In this document: positions 4,707 through 56,588 of the stretch, piece by piece
Numbering within the stretch: position 1 is the stretch's first letter
How the letters are laid out: each line of letters begins with the position of its first letter
DNA from: a virus
DNA: 64,000 nt
UHGV virus genome: UHGV-1351569
Reading direction: 5' to 3' (one strand)
Notes under the pieces: model-generated
What the model was told of the DNA's origin: nothing
What the model saw: only the letters and a program-made list of their open reading frames with translations
The model's database searches: none
Translations under genes and position numbers: made by a program

Positions 4707-4714
4707 TATAAATA
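4707..4714 (+). promoter_or_regulatory. possible T4 late promoter core (TATAAATA)
   Basis: Exact TATAAATA about 25 nt upstream of the 4740 ORF. Confidence 0.4.
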
Positions 4715-4739
4715 GGTTTATCTAACTAAAGGGGTATAT

Positions 4740-16747: not shown

Positions 16748-16918
16748 ATGATTTACGATATTAATGTAGCAAGAGCTCCGTCAATGGTTACTATTCCAGC
16801 TGAAGAATTAGATCGTCTTCAGAAAATTGAAGAGCTTCTTTGGGAAATTGAATCTGATTTGCCATCAGGACTAGAATCCTGGATTGATTATGAAGAACTT
16901 AATAAATTGCGAAATTAA
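16748..16918 (+). CDS. hypothetical protein, 56 aa
   Basis: ATG at 16748 just after upstream stop. Confidence 0.4.
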   Translation: MIYDINVARAPSMVTIPAEELDRLQKIEELLWEIESDLPSGLESWIDYEELNKLRN

Positions 16919-16928
16919 TTGGTGAAAA

Positions 16929-17249
16929 ATGAATATTGAAAATAAATTAGATGTTGATGCAGTTCTGAGCGAAATCATCGAAGACCATGATGCATTTTCA
17001 GAAAATTATGATTTCGATTTTTCGGATTATCTTAAACCTGTCGAAATAGAAGACTGGGTGCAAGATGGTAAATGCCAATATCGTCAGTGTGTTTATTTTA
17101 GTCCAAAACATAACGTTCATGTGTCTGTAAATGAATCTCGTTCAGGTTCTTACCATTCTGACTGGTATTATGCAGTTCCGACTGTTGAACTAGTCGAGCC
17201 CCGTGAACGTGTAGTAACTCAGACAGTACGAGAATGGATTACGCTATAA
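16929..17249 (+). CDS. hypothetical acidic protein, 106 aa
   Basis: ORF from track. Confidence 0.5.
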   Translation: MNIENKLDVDAVLSEIIEDHDAFSENYDFDFSDYLKPVEIEDWVQDGKCQYRQCVYFSPKHNVHVSVNESRSGSYHSDWYYAVPTVELVEPRERVVTQTVREWITL

Positions 17250-17354
17250 AACCTTGGTGGGCGGCTAGATGGGAAACAGTAGAGCCAGAGCCGGAAGAAC
17301 CGGTTTACACTGATGAAGAAACAGTATATAATGAACCAACAATAAATGACTTAA

Positions 17355-17819
17355 TTGATATGGAGATGGGACATGATTACAGTAGATAAGTGGTTTAGAA
17401 TTAATCGTGCTGATAAAGGGCTGTGTAATTACTGGCCGGAACTTAGTGCAGGTACTGTCTTTAAAGTTCGTGAACTTGCAAAAGAATGCGAAGATGATAT
17501 AGAACCTGATACTGGAATTATTGAAATTGAACTTTCTGATGGAAAGATTATTAACATCTATGATAAGCCAATTACATATTGGTGCTTGTGGAATACCGAA
17601 TCAGTAGAAAATGGCGAAATTGAAGAAGTTGTAGAACGAGTTGATCAAGCTATTCATAAACCTAAAGCCGCTTTTCAAGGTGAACGCATTTCATATGCAT
17701 TATCTAAATCGGCGTTGAAAAAAGATATTGATGATTACGAAGGAAATTTAATGCAAGCCGCGGCAGAATATATTGAATGGCTTGAAACTCAAATTTCTTT
17801 TTCTGACCGAGCGTTTTAA
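17355..17819 (+). CDS. hypothetical protein, 154 aa (at the position where T4 carries pin)
   Basis: ORF from track; assignment to pin is positional only. Confidence 0.5.
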   Translation: MIWRWDMITVDKWFRINRADKGLCNYWPELSAGTVFKVRELAKECEDDIEPDTGIIEIELSDGKIINIYDKPITYWCLWNTESVENGEIEEVVERVDQAIHKPKAAFQGERISYALSKSALKKDIDDYEGNLMQAAAEYIEWLETQISFSDRAF

Positions 17820-17995: not shown

Positions 17996-18007
17996 AAATA
18001 ATAAATA

Positions 18008-18036
18008 CCCTTATCTATTCAAGGTAAGGGTTTATT
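18008..18036 (+). promoter_or_regulatory. stem-loop over the gene 49 ribosome-binding region
   Basis: ccctta...taaggg inverted repeat enclosing the aagg SD, 6 nt before ATG. Confidence 0.45.
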
Positions 18037-19254: not shown

Positions 19255-19262
19255 GTATAAAT
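19255..19262 (+). promoter_or_regulatory. T4 late promoter core (TATAAATA) inside intron, upstream of endonuclease ORF
   Basis: Exact TATAAATA 30 nt upstream of the ORF ATG. Confidence 0.55.
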
Positions 19263-19292
19263 AAGATTATCTTATGAATACGAGGTGAAACA

Positions 19293-43434: not shown

Positions 43435-43791
43435 ATGTATAGTTCTGAATTTTCATATTTAAAAATGGAAAAAATTTCATACGATTTTATAGATGAAAAG
43501 GTTTATTATAGTTTCCATGAACCACGTTTTAACAGTGAAGTCGGTTTTATTGTAGTAAAAGATAATTTCATTTTAAAAATATATTCGGCATTAAAGGATT
43601 TTCACTACGAAAATATTAACCTAAAATTTGATAAAGAAAACGTTCATAATTGTGCAGTAACAATTACAGGAAATAAAGGTACATGTGTTATGCTATCTGA
43701 TGAAATTAATGATTTGTTAAATGATGTAGAAAAGGTTGCTGTTCCATCAATTGATGACCAAATTTTTAACGCTTTTATGAATAGAGGTTAA
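43435..43791 (+). CDS. adfA: 61.2-position protein (anti-DarT factor AdfA in T4-like phages)
   Basis: 118 aa at the 61.2 slot between sp and 61; identity rests on synteny and size. Confidence 0.55.
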   Translation: MYSSEFSYLKMEKISYDFIDEKVYYSFHEPRFNSEVGFIVVKDNFILKIYSALKDFHYENINLKFDKENVHNCAVTITGNKGTCVMLSDEINDLLNDVEKVAVPSIDDQIFNAFMNRG

Positions 43792-43959: not shown

Positions 43960-44988
43960 ATGTCATCAATACCTTGGATTGATAATGAGTTTGCATACCG
44001 TGCATTGGCTCATTTACCTAAATTCACACAAGTAAATAATAGTTCAACTTTTAAATTGCGGTTTAGATGCCCTGTTTGTGGAGATTCAAAAACCGACCAA
44101 AATAAAGCTCGTGGATGGTATTACGGTGATAATAATGAAGGAAATATTCATTGTTATAACTGTAACTATCATGCACCAATCGGAATATATTTAAAGGAGT
44201 TTGAACCTGATTTATATCGTGAGTATATCTTTGAAATAAGAAAAGAAAAAGGTAAAAGTCGTCCAGTAGAAAAACCTAAAGAACTTCCTAAGCGACCTGA
44301 GAAGAAAATAATTAAATCTCTTCCGTCATGTGTTAGATTAGATAAACTGGCGGAAGACCATCCAATTATAAAATATGTAAAAGCTCGTTGTATTCCAAAG
44401 GATAAATGGAAATATCTTTGGTTTACAACCGAATGGCCTAAATTAGTTAATAGTATAGCACCGGGAACATACAAAAAGGAAATACCTGAGCCTCGTCTTG
44501 TTATTCCAATTTATAATGCTAATGGAAAAGCTGAGTCTTTTCAAGGCCGTGCGTTAAAGAAAGATGCTCCTCAAAAATATATCACCATCAAAGCTTATCC
44601 TGAGGCAACAAAAATCTATGGAGTCGAACGAGTCAAAGATGGTGATGTATATGTTCTAGAAGGACCTATAGATTCACTTTTTATTGAAAATGGTATAGCT
44701 ATTACAGGTGGTCAATTAGACCTAGAAATTGTTCCATTTAAAGATAGACGTGTATGGGTTTTAGATAATGAACCTCGTCATCCTGACACTATTAAACGAA
44801 TGACTAAATTAGTTGATGCAGGAGAAAGGGTTATGTTTTGGGATAAATCTCCCTGGAAATCAAAAGATGTTAATGATATGATTAGAAAGGAAGGTGCAAC
44901 CCCTGAACAAATTATGGAATATATGAAAAATAATATTGCCCAGGGGTTAATGGCTAAAATGCGGCTATCTAAATATGCCAAGATTTAA
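43960..44988 (+). CDS. 61: DNA primase gp61
   Basis: 342 aa; N-terminal zinc ribbon CPVCGDS...CYNCNYH; matches T4 gp61 size. Confidence 0.93.
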   Translation: MSSIPWIDNEFAYRALAHLPKFTQVNNSSTFKLRFRCPVCGDSKTDQNKARGWYYGDNNEGNIHCYNCNYHAPIGIYLKEFEPDLYREYIFEIRKEKGKSRPVEKPKELPKRPEKKIIKSLPSCVRLDKLAEDHPIIKYVKARCIPKDKWKYLWFTTEWPKLVNSIAPGTYKKEIPEPRLVIPIYNANGKAESFQGRALKKDAPQKYITIKAYPEATKIYGVERVKDGDVYVLEGPIDSLFIENGIAITGGQLDLEIVPFKDRRVWVLDNEPRHPDTIKRMTKLVDAGERVMFWDKSPWKSKDVNDMIRKEGATPEQIMEYMKNNIAQGLMAKMRLSKYAKI

Positions 44989-45185
44989 ATTAACCCAACC
45001 AAAGCAAATGCTAAATCTACGAATGTATCAAGAGTAACTACTGGAATATTAATACCATGCGCAATAGCTACTGGCGATAAAACAAAATTCCAAAGTAAAA
45101 TTCCTATCATAGCAGAAATAGTAAAAGCTATACGTTTTTTATTACCTTTGATGGCATTAACAAGTGCCATTAATTTTTGTACCAT
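44985..45185 (-). CDS. small hydrophobic protein, 66 aa, opposite strand
   Basis: Only ORF in the 61-56 gap; AAGGAGGA RBS 5 nt before ATG on minus strand; two hydrophobic segments. Confidence 0.55.
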   Translation of the reverse strand: MVQKLMALVNAIKGNKKRIAFTISAMIGILLWNFVLSPVAIAHGINIPVVTLDTFVDLAFALVGLI

Positions 45186-45196
45186 ATGTCCTCCTT

Positions 45197-45222
45197 ATTG
45201 CTTTATATATTTATTGTATAAT
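45197..45222 (+). promoter_or_regulatory. MotA-dependent middle promoter upstream of gene 56
   Basis: TGCTTTA 45199-45205, 11-bp spacer, TATAAT 45217-45222. Confidence 0.55.
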
Positions 45223-45256
45223 TAATCTACTAACCCATGAATTGAAAGGAAAAATA

Positions 45257-45775
45257 ATGGCTTACTTTAACGAATGTTCACAACTGATTGAAGGCGCTGA
45301 TAAAGCTCAAAATGAATATTGGGATATTCTCGGCGATGAAAAAGACCCACTACAGGTTATGCTTGATATGCAGAAATCTCTGCAGGTTCGTTTAGCTAAA
45401 GATAAACCTGAATATAACCGTCATCCTGATGATTTGGCTACCGCAGGTGAAGTTGTTGATTGGCTGCGCAATCAGAAAGATTATATTGACGATGAATTCC
45501 GTGAACTTCTGACTTCTCTTGGTGGTATGAGTAATGGTGAAAAAGACGCATCTGCTGTATGGAAACCTTGGAAGTCGCAGCATGGTGAACGTCGTGAAAC
45601 TCTGATTACTGATTTGTCTCCGCAAGACCAGTTAGAAATTAAATTTGAAATGATTGATATTCTTCATTTCGTTCTGAACATGTTCCAAGGTCTCGGTCTT
45701 ACGGCTGAAGAAATCTTTAAACTTTATTATCTAAAAAATGCTGAAAACTTCGCTCGTCAAGACAGAGGTTATTAA
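45257..45775 (+). CDS. 56: dCTPase/dUTPase gp56
   Basis: 172 aa from ATG 45257; close match to recalled T4 gp56. Confidence 0.9.
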   Translation: MAYFNECSQLIEGADKAQNEYWDILGDEKDPLQVMLDMQKSLQVRLAKDKPEYNRHPDDLATAGEVVDWLRNQKDYIDDEFRELLTSLGGMSNGEKDASAVWKPWKSQHGERRETLITDLSPQDQLEIKFEMIDILHFVLNMFQGLGLTAEEIFKLYYLKNAENFARQDRGY

Positions 45776-56303: not shown

Positions 56304-56588
56304 ATGTTTAAAATCGGTAAGAAATATCGCATTCGCGAAGGTGAAGAAAAGAAATATCTATCTTCTGCTATTTATAGGAATGGTTCTATTAATGCCGTAA
56401 TATCTACAAGCGAATTTATCGTTGAAGATATGAAAGGTCATAACGTTACAATGATTAGTACAGCAACTAGCAGAAATGCTGGAAAAATTCTTCACAGTCT
56501 TCGGAGTGAAGTTTTAATTTATGATGAAGAATTTGACTTCTTCGAAGAAGTTCCCGAAGATTTTGATTTGAATGTACTATCACTATGA
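56304..56588 (+). CDS. hypothetical protein, 94 aa
   Basis: ORF from track. Confidence 0.5.
   Translation: MFKIGKKYRIREGEEKKYLSSAIYRNGSINAVISTSEFIVEDMKGHNVTMISTATSRNAGKILHSLRSEVLIYDEEFDFFEEVPEDFDLNVLSL

Follow-up and report, generated by a model that had tools for sequence, protein, structure and literature searches.

Gene dam.1 at the gene 61-gene 56 junction of a Tequatrovirus genome: a conserved antisense gene that probably encodes a late small membrane protein

Analysis of a 64,000-nucleotide (nt) stretch of the virus genome UHGV-1351569 (hereafter the window) identified a short gene, dam.1, on the opposite strand between gene 61, which encodes the DNA primase, and gene 56, which encodes the dCTPase/dUTPase. 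The window belongs to the genus Tequatrovirus (about 97% identity to phages EcNP1, ECO4 and vB_VIPECOOM01) and its plus strand corresponds to the early-transcription direction of T4. According to the sequence and the list of open reading frames (ORFs), the gene order at the locus is sp, 61.2, 61.1, gene 61, gene 56, soc. Most probably, the junction is of the type found in phage T6, and dam.1 is a conserved antisense gene that is transcribed late and encodes a single-pass membrane protein. A preliminary description of this DNA, made from the letters alone, had reported a distance of roughly 270 base pairs (bp) between the primase stop codon and gene 56 and, within it, an antisense ORF for a hydrophobic protein of 66 amino acids (aa) with a ribosome-binding site. 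Both were recovered: the gap measures 268 bp and the ribosome-binding site is the Shine-Dalgarno sequence AAGGAGGA (Table 1). The ORF begins at an ATG and converges tail to tail on gene 61, with which it shares 4 bp at the primase stop codon. That it is the only credible minus-strand gene in the window, as was also claimed, is consistent with a crude scan of the stretches of the window not covered by plus-strand ORFs, in which no other minus-strand ORF of at least 45 aa with a Shine-Dalgarno sequence was found. Paralogues of dam.1 were not found in the window.

dam.1 is a real gene under purifying selection, conserved and syntenic across the Tevenvirinae. This conclusion is based on a match to a protein family, existing annotations, low ratios of non-synonymous to synonymous substitutions (dN/dS), a bias in the codon positions that vary, synteny, and invariant residues. 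Residues 2-66 of the product match phrog_2024, a family of unknown function, with E = 3.3e-31, and the protein is 100% identical to an annotated coding sequence of phage IME340. With tblastn the ORF was found in 693 phage records, in 190 of which the product is only 46-56% identical; a more divergent dam.1 query yielded 825 records, including those of 117 Klebsiella phages. Hundreds of records annotate members of the family as hypothetical protein; the RB69 member is named RB69ORF029w. In a collection of 5.8 billion proteins it forms 121 clusters of 41-74 aa, none of which has an informative name from any source or a Pfam domain; the clusters with a named source come from T4-like phages and a few bacterial assemblies. 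Only 6 of 1.84 billion representative proteins were hit in a profile search, and all 6 belong to the dam.1 family.

The dN/dS values, calculated by the Nei-Gojobori method, are 0.11 for the window versus T4 (10 synonymous and 4 non-synonymous differences) and 0.06 for PhAPEC2 versus phiC120. Between genera the synonymous sites are saturated and the protein is still 46-56% identical. Within genera, 27, 6 and 39 variable sites fall on codon positions 1, 2 and 3, respectively (chi-square p = 9e-6). The position of dam.1, next to the primase stop codon on the gene 56 side, and its opposite orientation are the same in eight genera of the Tevenvirinae (Table 1); the gene is absent from the junction of the Winklervirus phage LC53. 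An alignment across the eight genera revealed five invariant residues, Trp32, Asn33, Pro38, Gly44 and Pro48, and the dam.1 product shares with the family a length of 61-74 aa, a single hydrophobic helix and the invariant core W-N-x4-P-x5-G-x3-P. AGGAG or GGAGG occupies the position equivalent to the Shine-Dalgarno sequence in every lineage examined. The gene has already been catalogued, as dam.1 of T6, as RB69ORF029w and as phrog_2024, and its presence in the window is in this respect an ordinary finding.

Could the frame be open by chance, in a region that is conserved as the 3' untranslated region and terminator of gene 61 together with the promoter of gene 56? A terminator-like hairpin of the plus strand does lie inside the ORF, and the ORF was called neither in the reference annotations of T4 and JS98 nor in the original 1984 T4 sequence record. 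Nevertheless, such a chance frame is most improbable. The ORF stays open over 63-74 codons in eight genera despite the saturated synonymous sites, second codon positions are strongly protected (6 of the 72 variable sites), and a strong Shine-Dalgarno sequence is present in every lineage. Moreover, the hairpin is not kept outside Tequatrovirus, and in VR20 and JS98 the ORF lies apart from the primase stop codon, without any overlap.

An extension of the primase by read-through was also considered. Its frame is open for 68-78 codons past the stop codon in Tequatrovirus and Mosigvirus. The extension was rejected as meaningless because a stop can arise in this frame only opposite a Tyr, His or Gln codon of dam.1, and the hydrophobic protein has just two of these, and because the open frame is absent in Gaprivervirus.

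Two phages carry changes within dam.1. In T6, ATT replaces ATG at the start position, and in T4_ev240 one nucleotide is deleted from an AAAAAA run at codons 15-17; either is an inactivating change or a sequencing error. Unless they are errors, the two changes hint that dam.1 may be dispensable in the laboratory.

The preliminary description had correctly stated that T4 carries the DNA adenine methyltransferase gene dam at this position: in NC_000866, Dam (259 aa) is encoded between genes 56 and 61. It was also right that the junction of the window lacks dam. The gap is too short for it, and a tblastn search of the 64-kb window with T4 Dam did not reveal a homologue (best E = 0.31). It had further been supposed that the antisense ORF sits there instead of dam, a view that does not hold since T4 and T2 carry both. 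In T4, the same antisense ORF lies within the 309 unannotated bp that separate dam from gene 61, and the T2 junction consists of dam, an extra ORF of 546 bp and the antisense ORF. Among these three classical phages, T4, T2 and T6, only T6 has the same order as the window: gene 61, the antisense ORF annotated as dam.1, and gene 56, without dam. Nor is the dam-less junction an oddity, as it also occurs in T6, RB69, PhAPEC2, VR20, JS98, CGG4-1 and other phages. It is a common polymorphism. dam.1 is no substitute for dam but a constant companion of the primase gene across T-even phages, next to which dam may or may not be inserted.

The site of the insert can be delimited. Pairwise blastn comparisons with T4 and IME340 show that 40 bp of the window are replaced in T4 by 919 bp that include dam (NC_000866 ~16806-17724). 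This stretch is a variable site at which relatives carry a homing-endonuclease gene or extra ORFs, according to the annotations of IME340, T2, SG1, CkP1 and Merlin; in IME340 the homing-endonuclease gene lies directly upstream of gene 56. T4-type Dam of at least 90% identity is encoded in 182 phage records and dam.1 of at least 90% identity in about 500 Tequatrovirus records; in several records the two genes are adjacent by their coordinates. In all genera examined outside Tequatrovirus, dam is absent from the site between genes 61 and 56. For this reason, dam looks like an optional cassette of about 0.9 kb that was gained in part of Tequatrovirus, the T4/T2 lineage, and not like a gene that was lost here.

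The reverse scenario, in which the ancestral junction contained dam and the lineage of this phage has recently deleted it, draws on the classical relatives T4 and T2, which carry dam at this junction, and on the 182 records with T4-type Dam. It is unlikely, given the absence of dam from the site in all of the other genera examined and from roughly two thirds of the Tequatrovirus records that contain dam.1. In addition, the gene 56 promoter interlocks within the 40 bp with the dam.1 late element (see below) in a manner that resembles RB69 and VR20, and the site also accepts other cargo, namely homing endonucleases and the extra ORFs of T2, CkP1 and Merlin.

Two further observations concern adenine methylation. 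T4_ev240, which has the same junction as the window, encodes a Dam-like protein of 263 aa between nrdA and nrdB (138107-138898) that is 33% identical to T4 Dam over residues 2-182. Only 6 phage records contain this rare gene with at least 80% identity, and it is absent from the nrdA-nrdB locus, the one locus inspected, of vB_VIPECOOM01, the nearest relative of the window. Among the palindromic tetramers of the window, which contains no dam gene, GATC shows the strongest depletion: it occurs 67 times where trinucleotide frequencies predict 210 (ratio 0.32), followed by TCGA with a ratio of 0.59.

dam.1 is probably a late gene, to judge from its location on the minus strand, from the presence of an avoided motif at promoter distance, and from the recurrence of that motif in unrelated contexts. 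All early and middle transcripts of T4 have the same direction; both strands are used by late transcripts only (PMC2988020). Upstream of the dam.1 start codon the minus strand reads AATAAATA, the A(-13) variant of the late-promoter -10 element TATAAATA, from which transcription would start near 45202 and create a 17-nt leader. Among 50 listed T4 late promoters, nine have A(-13), which makes it the commonest accepted variant (PMC2988020; see also PMC1524935). The 7-mer ATAAATA is found only 7 times on both strands of the window, versus 39.9 +/- 6.3 expected copies, and 5 of the 7 copies lie 22-30 nt upstream of a Shine-Dalgarno sequence and an ATG, including those of soc and gene 49. NATAAATA is kept 16-22 nt upstream of the dam.1 ATG in four genera and in at least four unrelated upstream contexts; the variants are listed in Table 1. 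A promoter of the sigma-70 type close upstream of dam.1 was sought on the minus strand without success; the only candidate, a 9/12 match at 45440-45411, lies inside gene 56.

The putative late promoter is interleaved with the middle promoter of gene 56. The latter was assigned by the MotA-box consensus and predicts a transcription start near 45229. In T4, the equivalent mot-box and -10 sequence are annotated as P(M) 16.53 upstream of gene 69/56 (X01416). The late element of dam.1 is located inside the spacer of this promoter, on the other strand, such that the predicted starts at ~45202 (minus strand) and ~45229 (plus strand) are divergent and 27 bp apart. The preliminary description had stated that the ORF overlaps the middle promoter of gene 56, which is true of the 5' leader and the promoter of dam.1 but not of its coding sequence.

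A second plus-strand element, the terminator-like hairpin followed by a T-run that was mentioned above, is located inside codons 5-13 of dam.1 and has a calculated folding energy of -12.4 kcal/mol (z = -2.8). It is kept in Tequatrovirus and weak in Mosigvirus and Gaprivervirus. If it terminates transcription, gene 61 transcripts ending there would be antisense to codons 3-66 of dam.1. Antisense control of dam.1 by these transcripts is regarded as a possibility and not as the mechanism, because the hairpin is conserved only in Tequatrovirus. A search against Rfam gave no match with E <=1 except for two chance hits to small nucleolar RNAs.

A related proposal is that the locus resembles a type I toxin-antitoxin system, in which a toxic membrane peptide would be silenced by the 3' RNA of gene 61 until late in infection. 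The encoded peptide is small and hydrophobic, the Tequatrovirus hairpin would provide gene 61 RNA with a 3' end complementary to codons 3-66, and the promoter elements never contain the optimal T(-13), which would fit a need for low expression. However, neither a gene nor a promoter devoted to an antisense RNA is present, Mosigvirus and Gaprivervirus have not conserved the hairpin, Jiaodavirus has an ordinary hairpin between the converging genes, and no similarity to type I toxin families was found in Pfam or PADLOC. On balance, such a system is very unlikely.

The dam.1 product is most likely a single-pass protein of the inner membrane that has a cytoplasmic N-terminus and a short periplasmic tail. 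Its first 18 residues are rich in lysine and arginine (net charge +5) and form a predicted amphipathic helix. They are followed, at residues ~19-42, by a hydrophobic helix in which Trp-Asn and a Pro are invariant. The 24 residues at the C-terminus are hydrophobic, with conserved acidic residues and the invariant Gly44 and Pro48. The AlphaFold2 model contains helices at residues 2-14, 16-42 and 52-63, with a predicted local distance difference test score (pLDDT) of 74.5. For RB69ORF029w, TMHMM predicts a transmembrane helix at residues 21-41 (Nolan et al. 2006, PMC1524935 supplement). A second transmembrane helix, which would result in a hairpin topology, was considered in view of the Kyte-Doolittle values of 1.6-2.0 of the C-terminal 19 residues in T-even phages. 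The single-pass topology is favored since the C-terminal tail is too polar in Jiaodavirus and Karamvirus (Kyte-Doolittle values of 0.6-1.1).

A small, hydrophobic protein that is probably made late might be a holin or another direct effector of lysis, and UniRef and BFVD indeed name the homologue of vB_EcoM_OE5505 'Holin'. This label is unreviewed and confined to a single entry; the other members are mostly called 'hypothetical protein' and a few bear differing automatic labels. Pfam revealed no match to a holin family, and NCBIfam and PADLOC were negative as well. In typical holins, one or more transmembrane domains precede a charged, hydrophilic C-terminal tail, and the gene adjoins that of an endolysin or spanin. 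Here the layout is reversed, with the charges (+5) at the N-terminus and a hydrophobic C-terminus, and the neighbors are the primase and dCTPase genes, not a lysis cluster. Furthermore, T4-like phages already have the holin T, the antiholins RI and RIII, and spanins. A function as a holin is accordingly considered quite unlikely.

The following sequence of events is proposed. Before late times, the dam.1 locus would be crossed only by read-through RNA of gene 61, which is antisense to dam.1 and appears to stop at the hairpin inside the 5' end of dam.1. At late times, dam.1 would be transcribed from AATAAATA by RNA polymerase carrying gp55. The product could then act as an accessory, probably dispensable inner-membrane factor in a late process linked to the envelope, for which lysis timing or lysis inhibition, exclusion, and membrane-bound assembly are candidates. 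The envelope-linked role is a guess.

Several points weigh against this proposal. The spacing of 3-4 nt between the Shine-Dalgarno sequence and the ATG is short in the window. In Karamvirus, Moonvirus and Gelderlandvirus, ATTAAATA is found in place of the late element, and in no lineage does the element contain the consensus T(-13), which is replaced by A, G or C, so that the promoter may be weak. Among the RB69 late promoters listed with the help of a hidden Markov model, none lies upstream of ORF029w (PMC1524935 supplement). The topology was deduced from heuristics and a model of medium confidence. With regard to a role at the envelope, the product yielded nothing informative in Pfam, NCBIfam or PADLOC, nor was there an informative fold match; a fold search of BFVD returned only family members and weak helical matches. 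Literature searches did not retrieve a paper that names dam.1 or RB69ORF029w, and neither work on ribosome profiling of T4 nor work on small proteins missing from annotations proved relevant or offered dam.1 expression data. The HIDEN-SEQ preprint does not mention the dam.1 locus.

A bolder version of the proposal holds that dam.1 is an important late inner-membrane protein throughout the Tevenvirinae whose expression might be gated by a compact switch. T4 genetics would have overlooked it because the reference annotation omits the gene. The switch would consist of the late promoter inside the spacer of the MotA promoter of gene 56, in the oriA region of T4, and of gene 61 read-through RNA as a natural antisense until late times. 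If this were true, dam.1 might supply a partner still missing from lysis inhibition, superinfection exclusion or the assembly of heads at the membrane. It is a doubtful extension of the accessory role outlined above.

Table 1 Coordinates of features at the gene 61-gene 56 junction of the window, and dam.1 with its upstream elements in related phages
Feature	Position in the window, or phages	Strand	Basis
Gene 61 (DNA primase), 342 aa	43960-44988	+	ORF list; megablast annotations; T4 gene order
Stop codon TAA of gene 61	44986-44988	+	ORF list
dam.1 (RB69ORF029w / phrog_2024 family), gene of a 66-aa small membrane protein	44985-45185	-	ORF list; phrog_2024; T6 annotation
Intergenic gap between genes 61 and 56, 268 bp	44989-45256		Sequence
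Terminator-like hairpin and T-run of the gene 61 strand, inside codons 5-13 of dam.1	45148-45178	+	Pattern scan; fold
Shine-Dalgarno sequence AAGGAGGA of dam.1, 3-4 nt from the ATG	45196-45189	-	Sequence
Stretch replaced in T4 by 919 bp with dam, 40 bp	45197-45236		Pairwise blastn versus T4 and IME340
MotA-type middle-promoter-like site of gene 56: ATTGCTTTA (45197-45205), 11 nt, TATAAT (45217-45222)	45197-45222	+	Sequence
Late-promoter-like -10 element AATAAATA of dam.1, A(-13) variant of TATAAATA, 22 nt from the ATG	45215-45208	-	Sequence
Gene 56 (dCTPase/dUTPase), 172 aa, ATG at 45257	45257-45775	+	Sequence; ORF list; megablast; T4 gene order
dam.1 synteny, Tequatrovirus	T4, T2, T6, IME340		
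dam.1 synteny, Mosigvirus	RB69, PhAPEC2, phiC120		
dam.1 synteny, Gaprivervirus	VR20, TH40		
dam.1 synteny, Dhakavirus	JS98 (unannotated)		
dam.1 synteny, Gelderlandvirus	CGG4-1		
dam.1 synteny, Moonvirus	Merlin		
dam.1 synteny, Karamvirus	CkP1		
dam.1 synteny, Jiaodavirus	vB_VIPKPNUMC01		
dam.1 upstream element GATAAATA, 16-22 nt upstream of the ATG	T4- and T2-type phages		
dam.1 upstream element AATAAATA, 16-22 nt upstream of the ATG	Mosigvirus		
dam.1 upstream element CATAAATA, 16-22 nt upstream of the ATG	Gaprivervirus		
dam.1 upstream elements GATAAATA, 34 nt, and CATAAATA, 13 nt upstream of the ATG	Jiaodavirus		

Elsewhere in the window, late-type elements were observed on both strands. 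A perfect TATAAATA is present at 56369-56376 of the minus strand and is not followed by the start of an ORF; because the 7-mer core is strongly avoided in the window, it may be a late promoter for an antisense RNA. At 395-402 of the minus strand, AATAAATA precedes by 31 nt a 77-codon ORF that lacks a Shine-Dalgarno sequence, and it is either an antisense late start or a chance occurrence. On the plus strand, elements at 18001-18008, 4708-4715 and 19257-19264 are positioned 25-29 nt upstream of gene 49 and of two ORFs, one of 70 aa and one that starts with 'MKWIKRRC...'; the gene 49 element is AATAAATA. Judged by these upstream elements, the ORFs behind them are probably further late or dual-timed genes within the early region. 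Among the neighboring genes, gene 61.2 (43435-43791) encodes 118 aa, as in T2 and IME340, and 208 aa in T4 and T6.

The RefSeq records of T4 (NC_000866) and JS98 (NC_010105) omit the dam.1 homologues, which renders the gene invisible to genome-wide screens and omics studies that rely on these annotations. Mislabeling has also occurred: the CGG4-1 homologue is designated 'dCTP pyrophosphatase' and one copy in a Klebsiella phage 'DNA packaging ATPase'. It is mildly noteworthy that a gene conserved in eight genera is missing from both references and, likewise, that the middle promoter of gene 56 and the probable late promoter of dam.1 interlock. The analysis corrects the tempting misreading of the antisense gene as a replacement of dam; its practical value is modest. 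Should dam.1 indeed be late and its product membrane-bound, the T4 late program would comprise one more uncharacterized envelope protein, and the interleaved middle and late promoters would exemplify temporal strand switching.

The junction of the window can be compared with those of known phages. T4 Dam, encoded at this locus in T4 and T2 and absent here, is unrelated to the ORF in the gap. The most similar arrangement is that of T6 (MH550421, AXN58073.1), in which the antisense ORF likewise lies between genes 61 and 56 without dam. The upstream region is nearly identical to that of the window, including AATAAATA, the Shine-Dalgarno sequence and the gene 56 promoter, and the protein is nearly identical over residues 6-66. 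The difference lies in the ATT at the position of the ATG of the window, as a consequence of which the record annotates a 61-aa product that begins at Met6. The T4 ORF (NC_000866 17738-17938) encodes a 66-aa product that is 95% identical and has the same 4-bp overlap, Shine-Dalgarno sequence and plus-strand hairpin. In T4, however, the dam cassette of ~0.9 kb separates the ORF from gene 56, and the upstream element is GATAAATA in unrelated flanking sequence. The T4 ORF is not annotated in NC_000866, AF158101 or X01416.

RB69ORF029w belongs to the same family (55% identity) and has the same position and strand, with the predicted transmembrane helix at residues 21-41. It was listed among the ORFs of five other T4-like phages with predicted transmembrane or signal-peptide segments (Nolan et al. 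2006, PMC1524935). These authors did not name a T4 counterpart, but T4 has one; RB69ORF029w carries no assigned function or expression class. With regard to its upstream sequence, dam.1 resembles soc and gene 49, in which a late-type element 22-30 nt upstream of a Shine-Dalgarno sequence and an ATG is likewise located inside the early block; gene 49 of the window even has the same AATAAATA variant. The late expression of soc and gene 49 is established, whereas we infer that of dam.1. The two genes are read in the early direction, in contrast to dam.1, which is read from the opposite strand.

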